From a virus: DNA of 41,749 bases. This document shows, piece after piece, positions 9,085 to 22,512 of the stretch (position 1 is its first letter; each line of letters begins with the position of its first letter). The stretch lies in the UHGV virus genome UHGV-1286557. One strand, 5' to 3'. A model generated the notes under the pieces. It was not told where the DNA came from. It worked only from the letters and a program-made list of their open reading frames with translations, and made no database searches. The position numbers and the translations under genes were made by a program.

Positions 9085-9372
9085 ATTGCGAACTCGCAAA
9101 AAATATGATACGATCACTGCGTTCTCTTGGCGACGCCCGCCAAAGGGCAGCTCGCCTGAGACGCAATAACGTGATCGACTCACTTTGCGAAACAAAATCC
9201 CTCCATAAATCAATCACTTACCTACCGACTCGCAATCCATTTTTGCGAAAACCAACAAAAACGTCCTAAGTCCTTGAAAACGTTACTCGCAATTTCATTC
9301 GCAAAATTTTGCGAGTCTTGCGAGTCGATTCGCATTACTCGCAACACGTATTATTTTACGAGTTTAAGTCCT
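9085..9372. repeat. repeat A: ~290-bp iteron/palindrome cassette, homologous to 41010-41290
   Basis: At least 8 copies of TTGCGA(G/A)/(C/T)TCGCAA; 16-bp perfect palindrome TCGCAAAATTTTGCGA at 9299-9314; TGATACGATCA; GC hairpin. Shared blocks with copy B: CTAAGTCCTTGA and TACTCGCAATT. Begins at the last codons of the primase gene. Confidence 0.8.
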
Positions 9373-11656
9373 CATCACTTGCAACCAATTCCGGCGGGTC
9401 AAAATCGTTTAAGCCAGTCGGCAGCCGGTATTGTTGGTTGTAAACTTCGCCCGTATCCGGGTTGCGACCATGCACTAAAACCCGTCGTCGCACTAACTCT
9501 TCCAGCACTTTTTTATAGTTGCCGCTGGTGAACTTGTTTCCGCCGGCTGTGCCGATGGCATATGGTGAATAGCCTTCCGGGCGATCATCCAGAAGTTCTA
9601 GCTGGGCCACCATCACCTCTTCGGCCTTGTTCTTGGGTCCTGCGCCGCCGGAGGCTTTCACCGCCTCCCGGGCCACTTCGGCAGCTGGCGATTCGAATGG
9701 CGCCAGGGCGACCGGTACCAGATACAGTGTTTCGTCACGCGGCGACATCTCCAGCGGTTTCGGCGTCCAGCCGGACAGCTGATCGGAAAAGTCCGGGCCG
9801 GCGGCGGTGGACAGGTACGCGTTTACCCGGTCGGCGTGCGCCTGGGGGACGTCGATTTTACATTTCAGCAGGACGAAGCCGCGGGGCGACTGCTTGACGC
9901 CGTTACGCGCTTTTTCGTGATAGAGGTTGATCTGGTGCGGCTTGGTCTCGTCCGGCTGCTCGATGAAGTAGGCATAGTCGACGGCGCCATGCAGTGCGCC
10001 GGAGCCGCGGGCGGTACGCTGGCCCGAGGACGACTTCGCCGGGTGGTGGATAACGCCCGCGCTGCCGCCGGTGGTCTCGGAGATCTGTTTCAGCGCTCGA
10101 ACAATCTCGCCCATATCTGTCGGGGAGTTCTCATCGAACGGTTTTTTAGCCGTGCTGCGCATGGCGACGGTCTGGTTAAGCGAGTCGAAGGCTATCAGAC
10201 CTACCGGGGCGTCGCCGGCCGCGTCGCGTATGATTTTGCATACCTCTTTCACGCCCCGCGCGTCGGTGATATCGATGCCTTTATCCTGCAGGTCGATGAT
10301 ATGCAGCCAGTCCAGGTCGTCCTGGTACATTTTCTGCAGCGCCTGCTTACGATGCAGGCTGGTCTCGCCGCCTTCCGCATCGAAATAAAAGTTGTGCGCA
10401 CGCACGACACGCCGTCCGCCGAACGGGATCCCGGCGGAAATAGCCGCCATCTCGCCGAGGACGAAAAACGACTTACCGATGTTTGACTCGCCGGCGGCGT
10501 ACCAGGTGGATTTGAAATTGATCAGGCCCTCGATAATGGGATCGCGCTTGGTGAACAGGGTAACCGGGTCGTCGTCCAGGTCCTCGTCGGTACACTGCCC
10601 GGCGGACGGGCCATCCAGCGCCGCCATTACCTCGGCCTCGTAGACGTAGGTCACCTCTTCTTCGGGCAAATCCGGCAGCAGTTCGGCGATCTGCTTTTTG
10701 CTGATATTGTGAGCTTCCGGTAAATACTGGTCCGGCACACCGCAAAGGCGCAGCATCATGTGCTGGTGGGTGTTGTGCTTTTTGCAGTGGTCGTGCTGGC
10801 ACGCGAAGCGCACCTCGGGGTGAAGCGCATCCGGCATCATGATTGCCGTGCTGCCGTCGGTCCCGTCGTTGTCGCTGTGCTGGTAGTGGTTGGGGCACTG
10901 TATGGCGAAGCCGCGGCCAGAGGATAGCGGTTCGAGGCCCATCTCCCAGCACCATGCGGCGATAGCCTGGCTGTTCTCGCTGGCGTTCTCCAGCGCTTCG
11001 TCGGTCCAGTTGGTCGAGCCCGATTCGTCCGGAACGTCGAACCGGTGGCGCAGTATCCGGCGGACGCTGGCTGGCGCGCCGCGGTGGTCGATGGTCTCGG
11101 CCTCAATGTGCGGAGCGAACATAAGGCGGGCGCGCTGGAAAGCGGTTTCGTCCATCCCTTTCGCGCCGGTCAGCCCGAGCATATCGATGAATTTATGCTG
11201 ACACGGCCAGATCTCATCCGCCAGCATCGGCCGGTCTGTCGGGATGAGGAAACGCCAGGAGCGCGACTTAACGCCGCCTTTCAGGTCGTGCCGGTCGCCG
11301 CAGGTAGAGTAAGCGAAGAAAGTAAAACCGCCGTCCTCCAGTGCGCGACGCACCCGGCGGATCTCTTTGCTGGATACTTTGTCGATGTCGATAAACAGCA
11401 GGGACCTGGAAATGACGTTATTGTTATTGCGCTTGTTGCGCTCAAACTCCGCAGCGACATACGGCAACCGTCCTTTCTTTTCTTCGTAGCGATCTTCGGT
11501 CTCGCTGCCGTCAATGGATACCCCCAGCACGGGGTCGGCGCCGATCTCCAGCAGGTCGTCGATAAACTCATCCCAGGAGGATTCGAAAGCCTTCGGGCGA
11601 TTGTCGGTTTTATGCCGGCCGAGAGAATAGGATATTTTTGATTTTAACCGTGGCAT
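9356..11656 (-). CDS. DNA primase-helicase: N-terminal AEP-type primase with Cys/His zinc motif, C-terminal RecA-like (AAA_25/RepA-type) ATPase
   Basis: 766 aa. LLFIDIDK and FAYSTCGDRHD are AEP-like; CPNHYQH...CQHDHCKKH is a zinc motif; Walker A GESNIGKS and Walker B IAFDSL; C-terminal basic wHTH-like tail. RBS AGGAG. Confidence 0.75.
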   Translation of the reverse strand: MPRLKSKISYSLGRHKTDNRPKAFESSWDEFIDDLLEIGADPVLGVSIDGSETEDRYEEKKGRLPYVAAEFERNKRNNNNVISRSLLFIDIDKVSSKEIRRVRRALEDGGFTFFAYSTCGDRHDLKGGVKSRSWRFLIPTDRPMLADEIWPCQHKFIDMLGLTGAKGMDETAFQRARLMFAPHIEAETIDHRGAPASVRRILRHRFDVPDESGSTNWTDEALENASENSQAIAAWCWEMGLEPLSSGRGFAIQCPNHYQHSDNDGTDGSTAIMMPDALHPEVRFACQHDHCKKHNTHQHMMLRLCGVPDQYLPEAHNISKKQIAELLPDLPEEEVTYVYEAEVMAALDGPSAGQCTDEDLDDDPVTLFTKRDPIIEGLINFKSTWYAAGESNIGKSFFVLGEMAAISAGIPFGGRRVVRAHNFYFDAEGGETSLHRKQALQKMYQDDLDWLHIIDLQDKGIDITDARGVKEVCKIIRDAAGDAPVGLIAFDSLNQTVAMRSTAKKPFDENSPTDMGEIVRALKQISETTGGSAGVIHHPAKSSSGQRTARGSGALHGAVDYAYFIEQPDETKPHQINLYHEKARNGVKQSPRGFVLLKCKIDVPQAHADRVNAYLSTAAGPDFSDQLSGWTPKPLEMSPRDETLYLVPVALAPFESPAAEVAREAVKASGGAGPKNKAEEVMVAQLELLDDRPEGYSPYAIGTAGGNKFTSGNYKKVLEELVRRRVLVHGRNPDTGEVYNQQYRLPTGLNDFDPPELVASDEDLNS

Positions 11657-11697: not shown

Positions 11698-11731
11698 AAG
11701 CCTCTCCGTTTTGGATGAGGCTTATTTTTTA
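11698..11731. terminator. hairpin with T-tract, overlapping the HTH gene stop
   Basis: AAGCCTC-(12 nt)-GAGGCTT followed by ATTTTTT on the plus strand. Weaker in the minus direction (UUUACC). Could act as an attenuator between the regulator gene and primase. Confidence 0.35.
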
Positions 11732-11958
11732 TCCGGGGTGCCTTCCCCAAGCGCAAGCCAGCGAGCATCGCACTCCAGCGCGTCCGCCAGGCGAAAGATA
11801 CGCTCCATATTCAGGCTTTTAGTCCGCCCGTTCTGCACAAATGATAAAGCCGACTGCGAGAGACCCCCGCGCATTACAACATCTTGCTGGCGCAGGCCAA
11901 GCTGTTTCATCCGCGCATTAACGCGGAGCTGGAAAGGGTTACGGCGTGCTGTTGCCAT
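11722..11958 (-). CDS. XRE-family HTH transcriptional regulator (Cro/C-type, no peptidase domain)
   Basis: 78 aa. LGLRQQDVVMRGGLSQSALSFVQNGRTKSLNMERIFRLADALECDARWL is a classic HTH_XRE. First gene of the leftward operon, at the divergent control region. Confidence 0.8.
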   Translation of the reverse strand: MATARRNPFQLRVNARMKQLGLRQQDVVMRGGLSQSALSFVQNGRTKSLNMERIFRLADALECDARWLALGEGTPDKK

Positions 11959-12166
11959 TATAGGAATCCTCTTAATAGATAGGTTGACGTCTGCAATACT
12001 ATAGTATCTAACCGCACATAATCAAGCATTCTCTGGTGATTAGCACTAAGTCATTGATTTTAACGGTGCTGCAATTTAATTTGAAAAATCACTTGCAATC
12101 CCGATTTATCTGGACATATTATTACATCGCCGAAACGCAACCAACTTAACTAAACGAGGATTTACC
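11959..12166. promoter_or_regulatory. divergent control region with two promoters
   Basis: Leftward promoter TTGATT-N16-TATAGT (+ coordinates 12020-12025 / 11998-12003) overlaps a perfect 12-bp palindrome ATACTATAGTAT (11996-12007). Rightward promoter TTGCAA-N17-TATTAT is at 12094-12122. TGCAAT is repeated at 11992, 12071, 12095. GCAACCAAC at 12137-12145. Confidence 0.5.
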
Positions 12167-12655
12167 ATGATTGAGAAATTTTACGCACTGCTGGAGCGCT
12201 TTGTTATTGCCCATGAACTGATCGCCGCTAACAGCCGCCCGGTAACCGGTGCGGGCGGTTCGACCCCGGCCAAAGATAGCGAAGCACAGAACGGCAGCGC
12301 GCCAACCAAAACCACCCGCACCCGTAAGGCGCCGGCACCGAAAGAAGAACCGGAAGACGACGAGCCGGAAGAGAAGACTACCACCAAAAAACGCGGCGGC
12401 AAAACCGAAGCGCAGGCCAAAACTACCCGCGGTAAGAAAGGCACCGACAAACGCGCTGCGATCGGCGAAATGGCAAAAGCTGCCGTAGAAGGCGACGGCC
12501 TGGACGATGACGACGCCGACGCGCTGGTGGATAAGTTCGACGACCTGCTGGAAGACTTCGAAGTTAAGAACGTCAAAGAGCTGGACGACGATCAGGTGGA
12601 CGAATTCCACGACGCGCTGAAAGAGCTGATCGAAGAATTCTACGACGCTGAATAA
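12167..12655 (+). CDS. early protein: disordered, basic middle (KAPAPK/KKRGGK) and strongly acidic C-terminal half; candidate DNA-mimic / anti-restriction protein
   Basis: 162 aa, first gene of the rightward operon. ...DGLDDDDADALVDKFDDLLEDFEV...DDDQVDEFHDALKELIEEFYDAE. No recognisable enzymatic motif. Confidence 0.55.
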   Translation: MIEKFYALLERFVIAHELIAANSRPVTGAGGSTPAKDSEAQNGSAPTKTTRTRKAPAPKEEPEDDEPEEKTTTKKRGGKTEAQAKTTRGKKGTDKRAAIGEMAKAAVEGDGLDDDDADALVDKFDDLLEDFEVKNVKELDDDQVDEFHDALKELIEEFYDAE

Positions 12656-12659
12656 ACGA

Positions 12660-12686
12660 TCTGCCCCGGTGCGCCGGGGCTCTTAA
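12660..12686 (+). terminator. weak hairpin / attenuator after the first early gene
   Basis: GCCCCGG-tgcg-CCGGGGC followed by TCTTAACC. Confidence 0.3.
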
Positions 12687-12702
12687 CCAGGAGTAAACCG
12701 TT

Positions 12703-13401
12703 ATGCGCCTTACCAAAGATATTAAAAACCAGCTGATCACTAACTTGCTGAAACAAGCCCCTCTCGGCCTGCGCGCCATCGCGTGCATGGAAGAGCGCCG
12801 CGACATTGTGAAGACCGCGCGCCTGCTGTGCCTCGCTGCCGAGAAGACAACCGACCTGGAGATCCGCGGCCTGCGTGAAATGATTAAGCGCAAGGGTGCG
12901 GCGGTCGACAATAATTTTGTAAGTGTCTATGCCGCGGTTTGCGAAGTGGACAAAGACAATTATCACTCTTACACCATCGACTTTGCCGTCGGTGGCGAGG
13001 TCCAGTGTCGAATGCTGGACGGGTTCGACCGCTACTATCAGCCAGGGATCGGGCGCCGTGCGCTTCATGATAGTGAATATTTTGGCTGGTGGCTGTATGA
13101 GCTGGCGGAGTTCAAGGATGATGGCTACTTCCTGCCGCGTGAGCGCGTCCTGATCGATGCCGACCCGGCATTGCAGGAGCGTATCGCGAAAGCGGATGCG
13201 GAGTATCGGGACCTGTTCTCGGAAGTTGTAGCATGGCGCGCGACCATGCGCTCAAATCTGTCGGCGGTGAACACTTCCGAGAAATTGCGCGAAGTATGGC
13301 CGGAAGCATTCCCATTCTTACCGGCGCAGGCCAAAACGCAGACGGCAGCGATCGCACTGTCACCTGAAACCCTTAACGCTTTATGTGGGCTACCAAAATG
13401 A
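12703..13401 (+). CDS. hypothetical early protein
   Basis: 232-aa ORF with good coding character; second gene of the early operon. Confidence 0.55.
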   Translation: MRLTKDIKNQLITNLLKQAPLGLRAIACMEERRDIVKTARLLCLAAEKTTDLEIRGLREMIKRKGAAVDNNFVSVYAAVCEVDKDNYHSYTIDFAVGGEVQCRMLDGFDRYYQPGIGRRALHDSEYFGWWLYELAEFKDDGYFLPRERVLIDADPALQERIAKADAEYRDLFSEVVAWRATMRSNLSAVNTSEKLREVWPEAFPFLPAQAKTQTAAIALSPETLNALCGLPK

Positions 13402-13658
13402 AATATACCCTTATGAAAGGCCGCGACTCCCGAGACAACGTGATCGCCTTCTGGCTCCTGCGCACAGACGGCGAGACGAAAGAATGCGCTTACCTCGGCA
13501 AATGCCCGCCGCCGGGTAACCGTGGCGCGCAGGCCGCCCGCATTAAGCAGGTGACCATGGTTAAGCCAGATTTTTATGTCTTTGAGGACCAGTCGATGTT
13601 TGCGCTTCACTGCGACTATGCGTCGGCGTCACTGGTCGCAACCTGGGAGACCGTGTAA
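13383..13658 (+). CDS. hypothetical protein
   Basis: 91-aa ORF (alternative start at 13398). Its stop overlaps the DUF2800 start (TAATG). Confidence 0.4.
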   Translation: MWATKMKYTLMKGRDSRDNVIAFWLLRTDGETKECAYLGKCPPPGNRGAQAARIKQVTMVKPDFYVFEDQSMFALHCDYASASLVATWETV

Positions 13659-15118
13659 TGACCAATGCAAGCGGCAGCAATCACGAACACGCCTTGCTGT
13701 CTCCGTCCGGGTCCAAAAAATGGCTGGGGTGCTCTGCATCCCTGCTGTGCGAGAAGGACATCCCGAACGAAAGCGGCCAGGCGGCCATTAATGGGACCGC
13801 GATGCACGCGGTATCAGAGGACCTTTTAAACCGGCATATTAAAGGCGAGACAACCGTAACAGCGGCGCATTACAAGGGCGTCTACGTCCTGAATGAAGGC
13901 AAAGGCCCGATTAAGGCGGTGGTGGGCAAGCCGCCAGCTGGCTCGGTACTCATCAACGATGAATTCGTGACCATGGTCGAGCGCTACACCGATTATGCGC
14001 TCGGGATCATCTCATCCGCTGAGTACGTGAAGATCGAGATGCGCGCCGAGCTGACTAAGTTACTGCACCCAGGCTATCTGGCTAATTTTGCTGACGAGCG
14101 CACGGGAGAGATCCAAGTTAAAACCTTCGGCACGGCGGATCTGGTTGCCGTTATCCCGCGCACAGACGGGACATTTATGCTGCTGGTCGGTGACCTGAAA
14201 ACCGGTCGGCACGCGGTCGACGCGAAGGAGAATAAACAGCTGATGCTGTACGCGCTGGCTATCCTGGCGAAGCTGCGCAGGCTGTATGACATTACGCTGG
14301 TGCGCCTGGCGATATTCCAGCCTTATTGCGGTGGCCCGTCAGAGTGGGACATCACACCGGAGGGACTGGACATCTTCCGTAAGTTCGCCAGCAAGCGCGC
14401 GATCGAGGCGCTAGACGTGTACTACGGCGGTAAGAAAAATCTTAAGGCCAACCATTTCAAGCCCTCGGCCGACGCGTGCCAGTGGTGCCGGTTCAACGAG
14501 AAATGCAACGCCAGGACGAAGGCCGCTATCCAAACGGGCGGCACTACGGCAACCGATGCCGACCTGGGCGACGAGCGGCCTGCTACGGCATTCGAGGCGC
14601 TGGAAGCGATTCGCAAATTGTGCAACGATGCTGATGTTATGGACGTGTGGGACCACGTAACGCCTCATACAATACTTGCGCTCATTCCGGATCAAGAGAC
14701 TCCGAAGGCCGACGACAATCACGAAATGACGCCGGAGGAGCTGAAAGCGGCCTATGAAAAGCTGCCGGAGTTGCGCCAGCACATCGCCACGATCGAAAAG
14801 GCTATGCATGCTGCGTTGCTGTCCGGCGTTGCGGTGCCCGGCTATAAGCTGGTTACAGGTAACGAGGGTAATCGCAAATGGTCTGATGCCTCGAAGGTTA
14901 CCGAGACGCTGGAAGGCGCCCGCATCAAGCGCGATATGATGTACAAGGAATCGCTGATCTCGCCTACCGACGCGGAGAAAGTCTTTAAGACCGAGAAGCC
15001 GCGGATCTGGCGACGCCTTGAAAAGCTGATCGAGCGCGCCCCCGGCAAGCCAACAATTGCGGCAGCGGACGACCCGCGCGCCGAGTGGAAACAAGCATCC
15101 GATGAGGATTTATCATGA
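13658..15118 (+). CDS. DUF2800 / Cas4-like PD-(D/E)XK exonuclease with 4-Cys cluster
   Basis: 486 aa. N-terminal HALLSPSGSKKWLGC...C; GTADLVAV...VGDLKTG (D...D/ExK); C-terminal C-x2-C-x5-C (CQWCRFNEKC), typical of Cas4/RecB-type Fe-S nucleases. Confidence 0.75.
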   Translation: MTNASGSNHEHALLSPSGSKKWLGCSASLLCEKDIPNESGQAAINGTAMHAVSEDLLNRHIKGETTVTAAHYKGVYVLNEGKGPIKAVVGKPPAGSVLINDEFVTMVERYTDYALGIISSAEYVKIEMRAELTKLLHPGYLANFADERTGEIQVKTFGTADLVAVIPRTDGTFMLLVGDLKTGRHAVDAKENKQLMLYALAILAKLRRLYDITLVRLAIFQPYCGGPSEWDITPEGLDIFRKFASKRAIEALDVYYGGKKNLKANHFKPSADACQWCRFNEKCNARTKAAIQTGGTTATDADLGDERPATAFEALEAIRKLCNDADVMDVWDHVTPHTILALIPDQETPKADDNHEMTPEELKAAYEKLPELRQHIATIEKAMHAALLSGVAVPGYKLVTGNEGNRKWSDASKVTETLEGARIKRDMMYKESLISPTDAEKVFKTEKPRIWRRLEKLIERAPGKPTIAAADDPRAEWKQASDEDLS

Positions 15119-15400: not shown

Positions 15401-16159
15401 ATGGGAATCAAAGTAAACCTGAAAAATGTACGCATCGCATGGTTTTATGGATTCGAGAAAGCGAAAGCGAAGAATGACGGCGAAAAGGACGCATATCGCG
15501 TCGAAATTCTGGTTGACAAGGACGACCACAAAAATATTGCCAAGCTGGACGAAGCGGCATTGGCGGTAATGACCGAAGCACTTAAATCGGAAAAGGCTGC
15601 CGAGAAATGGCTTAAGCGCGAAAGCGGGCTTGATGGCAATATCTCCAAAGATTGTGCCATCAAAGACGGCGACGAGCGCGACACGGAAGACGAAAATTAC
15701 GAGCACAAAATCTGGATCCGCGCTAAGTCGTATAAACAGCCGCGTATCCTGACCAGCGAAGGTGAAGAAACCCGGGACGGCGAAGAAGACCTCGAAGGAA
15801 ATGACCTGGAAGGCAAAGTGCCTTACGGCGGCTGCTTCGCCAACGTGTCGATCGAATTGTGGGGCCAGAATAACGACACAGGCAAAGGGCTGCGCTGTAA
15901 CTGGCTTGGCGTGAAATTCGTCGAAGATGGTGAAGCGTTCGGCGGCGGTGGCTCCAGCGAGCGCGCCAACGACGATGACCTGGATGACGACGATGAAGAC
16001 GACACACCACGCCGCGGCAAGTCCAAGCCGAAACCGTCCCGCCGCTCGCGTGACGAGGAGGATGAAGACGAAGAGGCCGAAAAACCCCGCCGTCGACGTT
16101 CTCGCGATGAGGACGACGAAGACGAGGAGGAAGAGCGACCGCGCCGCCGTCGCCGCTAA
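15401..16159 (+). CDS. DUF2815 phage ssDNA-binding protein with an alternating poly-acidic/poly-basic C-terminal tail
   Basis: 252 aa. MGIKVNLKNVRIAWFYGFEKAKAKNDGEKDAYRVEILVDK... is typical of DUF2815. The tail reads DDDLDDDDEDDTPRRGKSKPKPSRRSRDEEDEDEEAEKPRRRRSRDEDDEDEEEERPRRRRR. TTGACA and GCAACCAAC lie upstream, at 15318-15335. Confidence 0.7.
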   Translation: MGIKVNLKNVRIAWFYGFEKAKAKNDGEKDAYRVEILVDKDDHKNIAKLDEAALAVMTEALKSEKAAEKWLKRESGLDGNISKDCAIKDGDERDTEDENYEHKIWIRAKSYKQPRILTSEGEETRDGEEDLEGNDLEGKVPYGGCFANVSIELWGQNNDTGKGLRCNWLGVKFVEDGEAFGGGGSSERANDDDLDDDDEDDTPRRGKSKPKPSRRSRDEEDEDEEAEKPRRRRSRDEDDEDEEEERPRRRRR

Positions 16160-16206: not shown

Positions 16207-16410
16207 ATGTATAAACTCAACCGAAACCGACCCCATGAAACACGAATCCCCGTCGGGCTGCCGCTGGACGTCGAGGGCTTCCGGCAATATCTCATAGAAA
16301 AAGGGATAGCGGCATCCGTTCAACTGGTATCCGAAGAGCTGCAGCAAATGCGGCGGGAGTTGCTGGACATTATTGATCAGCTGGACGCAACCGACGAGGA
16401 CCTGGAATGA
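16207..16410 (+). CDS. hypothetical small protein
   Basis: 67 aa; stop overlaps the polymerase start (ATGA). Confidence 0.45.
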   Translation: MYKLNRNRPHETRIPVGLPLDVEGFRQYLIEKGIAASVQLVSEELQQMRRELLDIIDQLDATDEDLE

Positions 16411-18593
16411 AGTTCGATAACCTTTTTCTCGACACTGAAACATTCAGCGCCTGTGACCTGAAAAAATGCGGGTCGTATGCCTATGCCGAGCACCCGTCCA
16501 CCGAAATTATGATAACCACCTTCGCTATTGACGACGGTCCGGTTATGGAGTGGGACGCAACGGCAGATCCCCGGATGCCGCGGGTATTGCGCCGGGCGCT
16601 GCGCGAGGTATGCAAGCAAAATACGAAGAGCCGGATTGTTATGCAAAACGGCCTTTTGTTTGATCGCCTTCTCATGCGCCACTGCTGGGGTATAGAGATC
16701 CCGGTAAAAAACATCATCGATACGATGATCTGCGCCTACCGGCTATCACTTCCTGGCTCCCTGGACGCGCTATGCCGCGTTCTGGAGATATCCGAGGACT
16801 TAGCCAAGGATAAAGCCGGTAAAGCGCTGATACAGCGATTCTGTAAGCCTACGCCGAAGAATTACAAGATCCGCCGTTACACCCGTGAAACGCACCCGGA
16901 AGAATGGCGCCGCTTTTTGAAATATGCCCGCAGCGATATATCGTCAATGCGTGAGGTGTTTTACGCGCTGCCGACCTGGGGTGACACCGAGAAAGAAAAC
17001 GAGATACTCGCCATTGACCAGGCGATCAACGACCGCGGCTTTTACGTCGACATAGCACTGGCCGAGTCCGCCGTCGCCGCGGTTAAGCAGCACAAGCTGG
17101 ACCTGCAGCGCGAGGCCATGGCGAAATATGGCGGCAGCCTGACCGGTAAGGACTTCCTCCCGATTCTGCGCGACCTGGCGCCGGCGTTCGAGATTCCCAA
17201 CGCGCAGAAGGCGACCCTGGGCGAGTTACTCGAGGATGAAGACCTGCCAGACGCGGCCCGCGCGCTAATAGAAATGCGCCTCGGCGCGGCGTCTACCGCC
17301 TCAACCAAGTACGACCCGCTGCTGCGCGGCTTATCCCGCGACGGCCGGCGCCGCGGCTGTTTGCAGTATGGCGGCGCGAAACGGACACTGCGCTGGGCGG
17401 GTAAAGGCTTCCAGCCGCAGAACCTGGCGCGCGGCCATTATGAAGGCGAAGACCTTGATTATGGGATCCGTTGCCTTAAGCGCAACCGCATTACGAAGGC
17501 TTTCGATATTGCCAAGCTAACGGCAACCACGGTGCGCGGATGCATTATCGCGGCGCCCGGATGCAAGCTGGTTGTTGCCGACTATTCGAACGTCGAAGGG
17601 CGCGGCCTGGCGTGGATATCAGGCGAAGAGGCCACGCTTAACGTTTTCCGGGCCGGCACTGACCTGTATAAAACGCTTGCGTCGACGGTCTTCTGTGTGT
17701 CGTATGACGATGTGTCGAAGGACCAGCGCCAGATCGCCAAGGCGATGATTCTCGGCCTTGGCTACGGCGGCGGCGTGGCGGCATTCCTGACATTTGCCAA
17801 AAACCTCGGCCTCGACCTCGACCGGCTGGCGCACGACCTGGCCGGCACATTTCCCGACCATATCTGGAAGGCGGCGCGCAGGGGCTGGGAGTTCGCCCGC
17901 ATCCAGGAGAAAAACAAGCGCGCACCAAAGGGCAAGAAGGCCGAGCGCCCGTCCTATGACCTTCCGAAAAAGGTGTGGCTGACCTGCGACGCATTGAAAC
18001 GCATGTACCGCGAGGCTAACCCGAATATCGTTAATTTCTGGTCCGAGCTGGAAGCGGCAGCATTGGGTGCGATCCGCAATCCCGGCCGTTCGTTTTGGGC
18101 TGGTGCCCGGGTGCGCGAGAATGGCGATAAGGCCGTTAAGTTCACCCGTACCGTGAAAAACGGTAACCCGGGATGGTGGCTTAAGGTTGAGCTGCCGTCT
18201 GGTCGCATCCTGTCGTATCCGGGGATCGGCCTGTCGGTCGAGAAAGAGGAAGACGAGGACACCGGCGAGATCCGCACGCGTACCCGTATCAAATACCAGG
18301 GGGAGAACCAGACGACGCGCCAGTGGGGCTGGCAATATACCTATGGCGGCAAGCTGGCGGAAAACATCGTACAGGCGCTTTGTCGCGACCTGCTGGCCTG
18401 GTCAATGCCCGGCGTCGAGGCCGCGGGGTATAAGATTATTCTGTCCGTGCATGATGAACTTTTAACCGAAGTTCCCGACACGCCGGAGTATACCGTTAAG
18501 GACCTGGAGCGCCTTATGTGCGTGCTGCCTGCGTGGGCTAAAGACTTCCCATTGAGCGCCGAGGGATGGGAAGGAAAGAGGTATAAAAAATGA
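16407..18593 (+). CDS. DNA polymerase, family A (phage type, with 3'-5' exonuclease domain)
   Basis: 728 aa. Exo motif FLDTETFS; polymerase motifs VVADYSNVEGRGLAW, KAMILGLGYGGG, ILSVHDELLTEV. Confidence 0.85.
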   Translation: MKFDNLFLDTETFSACDLKKCGSYAYAEHPSTEIMITTFAIDDGPVMEWDATADPRMPRVLRRALREVCKQNTKSRIVMQNGLLFDRLLMRHCWGIEIPVKNIIDTMICAYRLSLPGSLDALCRVLEISEDLAKDKAGKALIQRFCKPTPKNYKIRRYTRETHPEEWRRFLKYARSDISSMREVFYALPTWGDTEKENEILAIDQAINDRGFYVDIALAESAVAAVKQHKLDLQREAMAKYGGSLTGKDFLPILRDLAPAFEIPNAQKATLGELLEDEDLPDAARALIEMRLGAASTASTKYDPLLRGLSRDGRRRGCLQYGGAKRTLRWAGKGFQPQNLARGHYEGEDLDYGIRCLKRNRITKAFDIAKLTATTVRGCIIAAPGCKLVVADYSNVEGRGLAWISGEEATLNVFRAGTDLYKTLASTVFCVSYDDVSKDQRQIAKAMILGLGYGGGVAAFLTFAKNLGLDLDRLAHDLAGTFPDHIWKAARRGWEFARIQEKNKRAPKGKKAERPSYDLPKKVWLTCDALKRMYREANPNIVNFWSELEAAALGAIRNPGRSFWAGARVRENGDKAVKFTRTVKNGNPGWWLKVELPSGRILSYPGIGLSVEKEEDEDTGEIRTRTRIKYQGENQTTRQWGWQYTYGGKLAENIVQALCRDLLAWSMPGVEAAGYKIILSVHDELLTEVPDTPEYTVKDLERLMCVLPAWAKDFPLSAEGWEGKRYKK

Positions 18594-20974: not shown

Positions 20975-22018
20975 ATGAACTATTACAACGAGTGGGATCC
21001 GCAGGCCGCCGCATGGCTTCGCGAACTTATCGAAAATAAACTTATTCCGGAAGGCGTCGTAGATGAAAGATCAATTACCGAAGTACAAGCCAAAGACCTC
21101 AAAGGCTTTACACAATGCCACTTCTTCGCAGGAGTTGGAGGCTGGCCTCTTGCGTTACAGATCGCAGGAATTCCCGCGACTCAACGCCTGTGGACGGGCA
21201 GTCCGCCGTGCCAGCCTTTTAGCGTGGCTGGAGCAGGAAAAGGGAAAGACGACCCACGTCACCTGGCTCCTACCTTTCTCAATCTCATCGCGGACTGCCG
21301 ACCTGCACTCATGTTTGGGGAACAAGTTGCGGCAGCAGTTACCAAAGATTTCTGGATCGATTCTTTACTCTTTGAACTGGAGGAAGAAGGCTACTCCAGC
21401 GGGTTTAGCGTACTTCCAGCTTGTGGCGTCGGCGCACCGCACAAACGCGATCGACTTTTCTTCGGCGCGTGCCGGATGGCCAACGGTGACGACGATAGAC
21501 AACAATCAGGTAGCTGGAGAAGGCGCGGCAGCGAACCATCCGGCAAGGGGAACGACATTAGGCGGGGCAGTGCGCTTAACAAACTGGCCGACACATACAG
21601 CGAACAACGGAACCGGGGCAGGGACGAGCGGTCGAGAAGGAGGATTGAATCTGCAAACGGCAGCGGCGATCGTAGCGTGGCCCACACCGACAGCGAACGA
21701 TTTCAAAGGGAGCGGAGAGACAGTGATTCGCAAGGACGGGAAGGACCGGACTTTCGACAGACTGGACTACTCGACGGAGCAGGGGCTGAAAATAACACAG
21801 CCAATCCGGGTCATGGCTTCTGGTCAGATGCTGACTGGCTCGGATGCAGGGATGGAAAATTCAGGCCAGTTGAATCCGGCACATTCCCGCTGGCTAATGG
21901 GATTCCCGCCCGAGTGGGACGCCTGCGCGGTTATGGCAATGCAATCGTCCCGCAAGTCGCCGCCGAATTCATCAAAGCATTCATGGCGGCCAAAGCAGAA
22001 ACCGAAACTAAGGCTTAA
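20975..22018 (+). CDS. DNA (cytosine-5)-methyltransferase; conserved motifs split across two reading frames (two compensating frameshifts: pseudogene or sequencing error)
   Basis: The 20975 frame carries motifs I FAGVGGW, IV PPCQPFS, VI FGEQV and VIII HKRDRLFF, then turns low-complexity (R/S/D/G-rich) from about 21473. The +1 frame (listed as 21063..22031) carries WPTxTA repeats and motif IX RWLMGFPPEW (about 21888). Motif X GYGNAIVPQVAAEFIKAF is back in the first frame (about 21932). Confidence 0.55.
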   Translation: MNYYNEWDPQAAAWLRELIENKLIPEGVVDERSITEVQAKDLKGFTQCHFFAGVGGWPLALQIAGIPATQRLWTGSPPCQPFSVAGAGKGKDDPRHLAPTFLNLIADCRPALMFGEQVAAAVTKDFWIDSLLFELEEEGYSSGFSVLPACGVGAPHKRDRLFFGACRMANGDDDRQQSGSWRRRGSEPSGKGNDIRRGSALNKLADTYSEQRNRGRDERSRRRIESANGSGDRSVAHTDSERFQRERRDSDSQGREGPDFRQTGLLDGAGAENNTANPGHGFWSDADWLGCRDGKFRPVESGTFPLANGIPARVGRLRGYGNAIVPQVAAEFIKAFMAAKAETETKA

Positions 22019-22020
22019 AC

Positions 22021-22512
22021 ATGGCGGATAAATCAAACACGGCGCCGGAGGATAAAGACTGCTGGCGCTCACCTCCGGAGATATTCGATCCGCTCAATGA
22101 GCGGTTTAATTTCCGCTACGATATGGCGGCAGCAGATCACAATGCCCTTTGCGCACGGTACTACACCGAACAGAATAGCGCCCTGGGTATCGAGTGGCCC
22201 GCAGCATGGAAATGGTGTAACCCGCCTTACTCGAAGCCGCTGCCGTGGTTCCAGCACGCCGCGCAGTACCGGAAAACGGTGTTACTCCTGCACCTGGCCG
22301 TCGCTACGCAGTGGATGGACATTGCGCGCAGGGAGGCGAAAACCATCATTCAGCTGACCGAGCGCATCCAGTTTATTCACGCCAGGACCGGCGAGCGCGC
22401 GGAGACGAAGAACAATCGCGACTCGCAGATCATCATCTTTGGACGTCGGCCTAATCCCGACGGCGCGCGCATCGTCCAGTGCTCGATCGCGGATATCGCA
22501 AAATATCTATAA
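22021..22512 (+). CDS. phage-type DNA N6-adenine methyltransferase (Dam, pfam05869-like)
   Basis: 163 aa. W.SP..IF..L...F.F..D.AA pattern; catalytic NPPY (CNPPYS); size and organisation typical of phage Dam. Confidence 0.75.
   Translation: MADKSNTAPEDKDCWRSPPEIFDPLNERFNFRYDMAAADHNALCARYYTEQNSALGIEWPAAWKWCNPPYSKPLPWFQHAAQYRKTVLLLHLAVATQWMDIARREAKTIIQLTERIQFIHARTGERAETKNNRDSQIIIFGRRPNPDGARIVQCSIADIAKYL

Follow-up and report, generated by a model that had tools for sequence, protein, structure and literature searches.

What is the role of the small acidic protein whose gene opens the rightward replication operon of a Klebsiella phage? The question is raised by the virus genome UHGV-1286557, a stretch of 41,749 nucleotides (nt) that we refer to as the window. 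The source of this DNA is a Guernseyvirinae-like Klebsiella siphophage; in the region under discussion, DNA identity is 92% with Klebsiella phage VLCpiS11a (Guernseyvirinae) and 91% with Klebsiella phage 37P2. An initial annotation, made from the letters alone, had placed two anti-defense candidates at the head of an early operon: a 162-aa protein (12167..12655, + strand), described as an Ocr-like, acidic disordered DNA mimic, and a 232-aa protein (12703..13401, +), described as unknown. The positions given for both open reading frames (ORFs) are exact, the peptide segments quoted from them are present, and the gene order is correct in that the 162-aa gene does open the rightward operon, beside a divergent helix-turn-helix (HTH) regulator. 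Our analysis leads to a different functional picture. What had been called an "early operon" corresponds to the duf2800-gp2.5-polA replication/recombination module, which has already been recognized (PMC8093625); all three of its parts, i.e. the DUF2800 nuclease, a single-stranded DNA-binding protein (SSB) of family PF10991 and a family A polymerase, are together in the operon of the window. Our reading, which is tentative and to which we give a little less than an even chance, is that the 162-aa protein is a conserved, non-enzymatic part of this assembly of DUF2800 nuclease, gp2.5-like SSB/annealase and PolA, and not a stand-alone anti-restriction protein.

The company that the gene keeps carries much of this reading. 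A homologue search with the 162-aa protein returned 191 homologues, and in all 78 of the 78 loci compared, the gene order is the same: a leftward HTH gene, followed in the rightward direction by the 162-aa gene, an Nmad5 and/or a 91-aa gene, the nuclease, the SSB, and PolA, with the HTH regulator adjoining the 162-aa homologue in nearly all of them. In the window, only the Nmad5 gene and the 91-aa ORF separate the 162-aa gene from the nuclease gene. When a Kagunavirus homologue was used as a tblastn query, full-length matches were obtained in 482 phage records, mainly of Salmonella and Escherichia phages and including K1G, K1H, and SETP7; the corresponding nuclease, at 60% identity or more, is found in a similar number of records (∼452). 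The family is near-universal in the Guernseyvirinae. It extends to 155 Dhillonvirus records, with gp44 of HK578 matching the family at E=1e-43 and gp47 of Teewinot matching the family profile with an hhalign probability of 99.8. As annotated, Teewinot gp47 (locus L085, 3895-4518) is 207 aa long; homology and the conserved N-terminal helix start at Met-61, and the true start is probably 60 codons downstream of the annotated one. Distant members, which were detected by profile search, likewise lie beside the nuclease, even where the surroundings are rearranged. For example, in loci L010 and L079 the family gene is located mid-operon, between a gene for a DEAD-box helicase or methyltransferase and the genes for a short DUF2800 protein and PolA; in L080 it lies amid GcrA-, Thy1-, and GapR-like genes, one small ORF ahead of DUF2800; and L082 displays the same nuclease adjacency as L080. 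A single locus, L075, has a family match (weak, E=6e-6) without a following nuclease; the match adjoins an oppositely oriented PolA match, and it may be spurious or the contig may be rearranged.

Is this association a consequence of having searched outward from the 162-aa protein? To guard against such circularity, we also sampled from the nuclease side: DUF2800 nucleases are present in 1,444 phage records, and all 462 ORFs of eight diverse DUF2800 loci were scored with a hidden Markov model (HMM) of the family. In five of the eight (Pseudomonas UF_RH7, APSE-3, Streptococcus phi29961, Vibrio 1.004.O, and cyanophage S-ESS1), the ORF that directly precedes the nuclease gene is among the top five of the 462 ORFs, with the alignment running over the C-terminal domain. 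The ORF of Synechococcus virus S-ESS1 (locus L095, 2917-3372), which encodes 151 aa upstream of the DUF2800 region and is unannotated, matches the profile with E=1.8e-6 among the 462 ORFs. ORF3 of Enc34, a Chi-like member of the Casjensviridae, is likewise upstream of a nuclease and also matches the family. Judged by these profile matches, the C-terminal domain is located upstream of DUF2800 nucleases in phages whose hosts span four bacterial phyla, and it is non-acidic there. The family has been filed under several separate names: PHROGs 3127, 7721, 408, 18562, and 5053 cross-match one another, all are labeled "unknown function", and no Pfam family covers them; each of the 25 diverse relatives tested matches phrog_3127, and a literature search on these PHROG identifiers returned nothing usable.

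The protein itself consists of three parts. Residues 1-22 (12167-12232, +) are a conserved amphipathic helix that is nearly invariant in alignments of homologues (consensus MLDKFLxLLERFVVAHELIAANS); residues 23-90 (12233-12436, +) are a charged, disordered linker that varies in length across homologues and retains an acidic block followed by a basic block; and residues 91-162 (12437-12652, +) are an acidic three-helix bundle. AlphaFold2 (61 sequences) predicts the helix at residues 2-21 with low confidence, disorder from residue 22 to residue 90, and the three-helix bundle at residues 91-159 with a predicted local distance difference test (pLDDT) score of 80-90. The C-terminal domain, of ∼65 residues, has invariant L128, V136, L139, F147, and Y159 and a near-invariant H148, and the 162-aa protein is a structured, conserved family rather than a compositional accident. 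Some homologues (P0077, P0078, P0085, and P0142) have two tandem C-terminal three-helix domains, and thus this domain is an independent module. With an isoelectric point (pI) of 4.58 and a net charge of -16, which is distributed as +4 over residues 51-95 and -20 over residues 96-162, the protein has the charge pattern that had been described for it. The description "acidic disordered protein" is nevertheless only half right, because the acidic half is a predicted three-helix bundle; it is residues 22-90 that are disordered. Strong acidity is not even a defining feature: the mean net charge of the last 68 residues is ∼-14 in 167 members from enterobacterial lineages, whereas distant members (Bacteroides, Streptococcus, and APSE) carry little charge, net -1 to -3 over the same length, and the acidity is therefore lineage-specific.

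Database comparisons place the protein in its own family. It matches phrog_3127 from end to end (residues 1-162, profile positions 1-177 of 178, E=3e-24), a family annotated as of unknown function. Scans of the 162-aa protein against Pfam (E≤0.1) and NCBIfam gave zero matches; the best Foldseek hit of its model in the PDB has E=1.3; in BFVD, Foldseek found uncharacterized homologues only; and comparison of the family sequence profiles with the PDB gave no credible chain. The best PDB profile match, to the CW_7 repeats of the Cpl-7 lysozyme (E=4e-8), is the sum of three weak repeats, each with E ∼0.2, and we have treated it as a chance resemblance between three-helix bundles.

How is the gene expressed relative to its neighbors? 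A sigma-70-like promoter candidate, TTGCAA-N18-TATTAT, found by consensus scan (12093..12122, +), lies ∼45 nt upstream of the ATG and is invariant in five close relatives, and a Shine-Dalgarno sequence, GAGGA, is present at ∼12157-12161 (+). The divergent control region between the HTH gene and the 162-aa gene (11985-12100) is almost invariant among close relatives. It contains TGCAAT three times (GTCTGCAATAC, GCTGCAATTT, and CTTGCAATCC), and these repeats may be operator half-sites for the HTH regulator; a repeat tool run on the control region reported neither direct nor inverted repeats, and Rfam gave no match for this region. On the other side of the gene, the hairpin that the initial annotation had noticed does exist and its placement is conserved. 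It begins eight bases past the stop codon and has the sequence GCCCCGG-TGCG-CCGGGGC (12663-12680), i.e. a 7-base-pair stem of seven G-C pairs with a TGCG loop; together with a short degenerate U-tract, the feature spans 12663..12688 (+), and the region has a predicted energy of -19.3 kcal/mol. A hairpin of -14 kcal/mol or lower follows the 162-aa gene in 94% of the 78 loci, compared to 18% of random windows from the same loci (Mann-Whitney p=3e-27, a value that, given that the 78 loci are related, is not an independent-sample probability). The stem is made from at least six different sequences across relatives (GCCCCGG, GCGGCC, AGGCGGC, GCUGCCCUCA, UCGGCGUCC, and GCCCUGG), and this variation between lineages at a kept position argues for selection on the structure.

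The hairpin has some, though not all, of the marks of an intrinsic (rho-independent) terminator. In the window, a GC-rich stem-loop is present and a U-rich tract directly after the stem is not: the tract is degenerate (TCTTAACC; UCUUAACC), in contrast to the UUUUAAC of close relatives, and a terminator scan of the window did not call the hairpin at 12663-12680. Canonical U-tracts do follow the stem in HK578/Teewinot, Enc34, and L079 (UCUUUUU in HK578, UUUUUCU in Enc34, and UUUUUCA in L079). We describe the hairpin as a candidate leaky terminator or attenuator, which may terminate or pause transcription or else stabilize the transcript. The simplest inference from a terminator-like hairpin after the gene is that the downstream enzymes are produced in smaller amounts than the 162-aa protein.

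What might such a protein do? In the mechanism that we propose, the hairpin would make the 162-aa protein more abundant than the enzymes encoded downstream of it, and the protein would work stoichiometrically, as an adaptor or a regulator. We favor a role of this type because the pairing with the nuclease persists across rearrangements and host phyla, because the most conserved segment is a hydrophobic helix, because catalytic motifs are absent, and because the protein appears to be over-expressed. The N-terminal helix and the C-terminal bundle would dock onto another protein of the module, with the adjacent nuclease and the SSB/annealase as the likeliest candidates, and in enterobacterial lineages the strongly acidic bundle may additionally act as a nucleic-acid-like competitor. 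A bolder version of this proposal, which is possible and on balance doubtful, is that the protein would be an unrecognized fourth core component of the DUF2800-gp2.5-PolA module: a small subunit with a regulatory or adaptor role (possibly that of an immunity-like inhibitor present in excess) that would control the Cas4-like nuclease or couple the nuclease to the annealase, and that, filed under several unlinked PHROG names, would be shared by phages ranging from enterobacterial to streptococcal and cyanobacterial ones. A comparable case is the C-terminal three-helix domain of Red-beta, which tethers the annealase to lambda Exo. Both are small helical bundles in a recombination module, and in both protein–protein coupling, rather than catalysis, would be at issue; the bundle of the 162-aa protein, however, belongs to a polypeptide of its own, which also includes an N-terminal helix and a long linker, and the likeness is an analogy only.

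Several observations weigh against assigning the protein to the module. Of the eight diverse DUF2800 loci, three did not give a significant match: the Rhodobacter and Achromobacter loci gave none, and the Bacteroides locus gave a weak one (E=0.0085), with a 51-aa ORF just upstream of its nuclease that visibly bears the motif. That the nuclease always requires the protein is therefore not demonstrable from these loci. Match scores are modest for the most distant members (17-23 bits), whose alignments fall partly on the low-complexity linker, and the synteny seen in the Guernseyvirinae, Dhillonvirus, and the Casjensviridae is in part that of a module inherited as one block. Extreme acidity is still compatible with DNA mimicry directed at a host target. 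Finally, homologues are sometimes named "13.88 kDa late protein" after a protein of phage MB78 (UniProt Q9T1Z8; records of MA12, Tsm2, wast, and others); a search of the literature on phage MB78 did not find the source paper of the name, and the label, if meaningful, misfits an early replication role.

These points have to be set against what the alternatives would require. An Ocr-like DNA mimic that blocks type I restriction-modification (RM) or BREX, as had originally been proposed, would account for the acidic C-terminal half and for the position of the gene as the first one behind a probable early promoter, and T7 Ocr (gp0.3) and ArdA do share with the 162-aa protein a low pI and a first position in an early transcription unit. 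We nevertheless find this explanation highly improbable. The protein has no Pfam match to Ocr, ArdA, or Gam and no PDB relative by fold or by sequence. Structure prediction and disorder analysis, the checks that had been suggested along with the proposal, yield a helix, a disordered linker, and a compact bundle instead of an elongated DNA-mimic fold; T7 Ocr and ArdA are elongated, fully folded, acidic mimics of B-form DNA, whereas here the acidic, folded part amounts to only 67 residues, and a helix and a disordered linker make up the remainder. The gene is near-universal and fixed in a replication module, syntenic with replication genes in 78/78 loci, and not a variable accessory gene; in L010 and L079 it is not promoter-proximal, and acidity varies across the superfamily, such that the conserved C-terminal domain of distant phages is not acidic. 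In addition, the phages that carry the gene are themselves reported to be markedly sensitive to restriction, type I included: Kagunavirus phages are highly sensitive to RM systems (PMC11990801), and Dhillonvirus phages are sensitive to type I and type II systems when compared to the resistant Queuovirinae (PMC8594841), an argument that is indirect, given the poor performance of type I systems against most phages in that assay. BASEL isolates with a homologue of the 162-aa protein include TheodorHerzl, PaulFeyerabend, and GeorgBuechner. Acidity could also serve a host-takeover factor that acts by electrostatic mimicry on some other DNA-binding protein of the host, such as a nucleoid protein, an SSB, or a replication factor. 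An acidic folded domain, linker blocks of opposite charge, and likely high expression would all suit such a factor; the N-terminal helix and C-terminal domain are, however, conserved across phages of very different hosts, which favors a phage-encoded or universal partner over a host-specific target, and we consider this possibility quite improbable.

The main rival is a Gam/gp5.9-like inhibitor of a host DNA-end nuclease (RecBCD/AddAB), whose acidic bundle would mimic DNA and thereby shield the phage ends for the phage's own nuclease and annealase. The gene order recalls those of lambda gam-bet-exo and T7 5.9-6: like lambda Gam and T7 gp5.9, the 162-aa protein is a small, acidic, helical protein encoded just upstream of exonuclease and annealase genes, and the family gene is beside a phage exonuclease and annealase in all loci examined. 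The strongly acidic domain of the enterobacterial lineages fits, and the over-expression implied by the hairpin suits a stoichiometric inhibitor. Susceptibility to P2 OLD, which is triggered by RecBCD inhibitors, points in the same direction, as OLD robustly restricts Dhillonvirus phages (bioRxiv 10.64898/2026.07.10.737580) and Kagunavirus phages are variably OLD-sensitive (PMC11990801). The genetics of OLD escape, however, point elsewhere: the three HK578 escapers are in gp43, in the helicase-primase, and in the helicase-primase promoter, thus implicating gp43 and replication-initiation genes, and none is in gp44, the homologue of the 162-aa protein (bioRxiv 10.64898/2026.07.10.737580). The conserved domain is, moreover, non-acidic in Streptococcus, Bacteroides, APSE, and Chi-like members, and neither Pfam nor the PDB reveals a resemblance to Gam, Mu Gam, or gp5.9 in sequence or in fold. 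Overall, we regard a Gam-like role as unlikely. A last alternative starts from the conserved unit of gene plus terminator and supposes a transcription factor of the lambda-N or Xp10-p7 type, which would modify RNA polymerase or bind the transcript and so gate the reading of the replication genes until it has accumulated. The disordered Arg/Lys-rich linker, with RGRGRGR and TGRRSRTR motifs in some members, would be in keeping with such a role. Against it are the specific adjacency to DUF2800, mid-operon cases included; a ∼40-nt leader with no conserved hairpin or nut-like element and no Rfam match; the poor conservation of the linker sequences; and loci L080 and L082, in which the next gene abuts or overlaps the family gene and leaves no room for a terminator. 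We give this alternative little credence.

If the 162-aa protein belongs to the replication module as we propose, where should anti-defense functions be sought? The OLD data point to the gene just before the nuclease, which encodes a 91-aa protein (13383..13658, +) of phrog_4965 (E=9e-21) that is homologous to HK578 gp43 (phmmer E=2e-10); the match of HK578 gp43 itself to phrog_4965 has E=1.6e-36. HK578 with a frameshift in gp43 escapes P2 OLD completely (bioRxiv 10.64898/2026.07.10.737580), and by analogy with HK578 an OLD trigger or a RecBCD manipulator is thus more plausibly sought in the 91-aa homologue than in the 162-aa protein. In the Retron-Eco7 paper, the Dhillonvirus trigger gene is left unnamed, and the phage-gene knockout screen 10.1101/2024.04.14.589459 deals with a Queuovirinae phage and gives no information on these genes.

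The 232-aa protein encoded between the hairpin and the 91-aa gene (12703..13401, +) turns out to have a family after all: it matches Pfam Nmad5 (PF18757), a family of undefined function, with 104 bits against a cut-off of 27, over residues 1-231 and all of the model (positions 1-206 of 206). The gene is present in ∼13 of the 78 loci and in three positions, i.e. after the 162-aa gene, before it (L020), and between the SSB and PolA genes (L008). In 37P2, which has a near-identical backbone, an unrelated 66-aa ORF takes its place and uses the same ribosome-binding site and junction. We class the Nmad5 gene as an accessory gene, one that occupies a hot-swappable slot bounded by the hairpin and the nuclease gene. 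The replacement ORF of 37P2 (locus L002, 7109-7400) ends in ...GGLPK, as Nmad5 does, and the 91-aa gene that comes next in that phage has a premature TAA after ∼28 codons. Elsewhere, Nmad5 homologues at 27-29% identity are encoded near the capsid genes of Dhillonvirus phages, and the C-terminal half of the protein is also found in Stx-converting and other phages; a C-terminal motif, NTSEKL..WPE..F.P...ALSP.TLN..CG.P, is common to the window protein and its Dhillonvirus and L008 homologues. An extra homologue search with the Nmad5 alignment added no sequences. The AlphaFold2 model of the 232-aa protein has a pLDDT of 54, with residues 46-153 below 50, and a PDB fold search with it was uninformative.

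Does this Nmad5 protein act in DNA modification or in the encounter with host defenses? In Pseudomonas phages M6 and SN1, Nmad5 sits in a thymidine-hypermodification cassette (PMC9476957). The window protein covers the whole 206-position model of that family; unlike the M6/SN1 gene, however, its gene is in a variable slot of a replication operon and has no hypermodification enzymes among the ORFs scanned. That scan for base-modification enzymes, which did not include every small ORF, gave only C5-cytosine (Dcm-like) and Dam methylases and DUF3310, and the VLCpiS11a annotation lists no hydroxymethylase or aGPT-Pplase. The Dhillonvirus homologue has proved dispensable, and its cloning was attempted without success, apparently on account of toxicity; a single K-to-E change in it leads to escape from Tmn, whereas deletion of the gene does not (PMC11846954). 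Tentatively, the lysine concerned would align with K194 of the window protein, within the NTSEKL motif, provided that the SMA8 and SM_A2 proteins are equally long. By analogy, the Nmad5 protein of the window is probably dispensable and relevant to the host-defense response to the phage. The suggestion that the 232-aa protein is an anti-defense candidate is accordingly borne out in part: the variable slot, the dispensability of the Dhillonvirus homologue, and the Tmn escape by a K-to-E change (PMC11846954) speak for it.

These assignments have practical consequences. The DUF2800-gp2.5-PolA block is carried by more than 1,400 sequenced phages, among them many Salmonella, E. coli, and Klebsiella phages that have been proposed for therapy, and one of the most consistently present genes of the block is unnamed, lacks a Pfam model, and is absent from the literature. 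The recognition that several "hypothetical" PHROG families amount to one nuclease-linked domain provides a handle on the regulation of this recombination/replication system. The search for anti-defense genes is also redirected, with better candidates to be found behind the hairpin, namely Nmad5, the 91-aa gp43-like gene, and the unrelated genes that replace them. We favor this variable slot as the place for defense-related genes because Tmn and OLD escape mutations hit the Dhillonvirus homologues of the Nmad5 and 91-aa genes.

The remaining genes of the region complete the picture of a replication module. On the leftward arm are a 766-aa replicative helicase-primase (9356..11656, - strand), with Pfam matches to AAA_25 and a BT4734-like N-terminal domain and annotated as helicase-primase in VLCpiS11a, and the 78-aa Cro/CI-type HTH regulator (11722..11958, -; Pfam HTH_3, E=2e-7), divergent from the 162-aa gene. 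On the rightward arm, the 486-aa DUF2800/Cas4-like PD-(D/E)XK exonuclease (13658..15118, +; Pfam DUF2800, E=5e-69, and PDDEXK_1) is followed by the 252-aa gp2.5/Enc34-type ssDNA-binding and annealing protein (15401..16159, +; Pfam Enc34_ssDNA-bd, E=2e-28, and phrog_112) and the 728-aa family A DNA polymerase (16407..18593, +; Pfam DNA_pol_A). The 486-aa nuclease ORF of the window (13658-15118) comes directly after the 91-aa gene; in close relatives (L004, 6953-8538; L001, 9614-11138), an extra ORF of 56-90 aa precedes the nuclease, which is 438-454 aa long. Residues ∼195-252 of the gp2.5-like SSB (15401-16159, +) form a long tail in which acidic blocks alternate with arginine-rich ones (DDDLDDDDEDD...RRRRSRDEDDEDEEEERPRRRRR), a style of charge blocks that resembles the linker of the 162-aa protein. 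A SNF2-type helicase and two DNA methyltransferases are encoded further downstream of the polymerase; the genes of the latter, a C5-cytosine enzyme of 347 aa and a Dam-type N6-adenine enzyme of 163 aa, adjoin one another at 20975-22512 (+), and these two methyltransferases probably serve anti-restriction in this phage.

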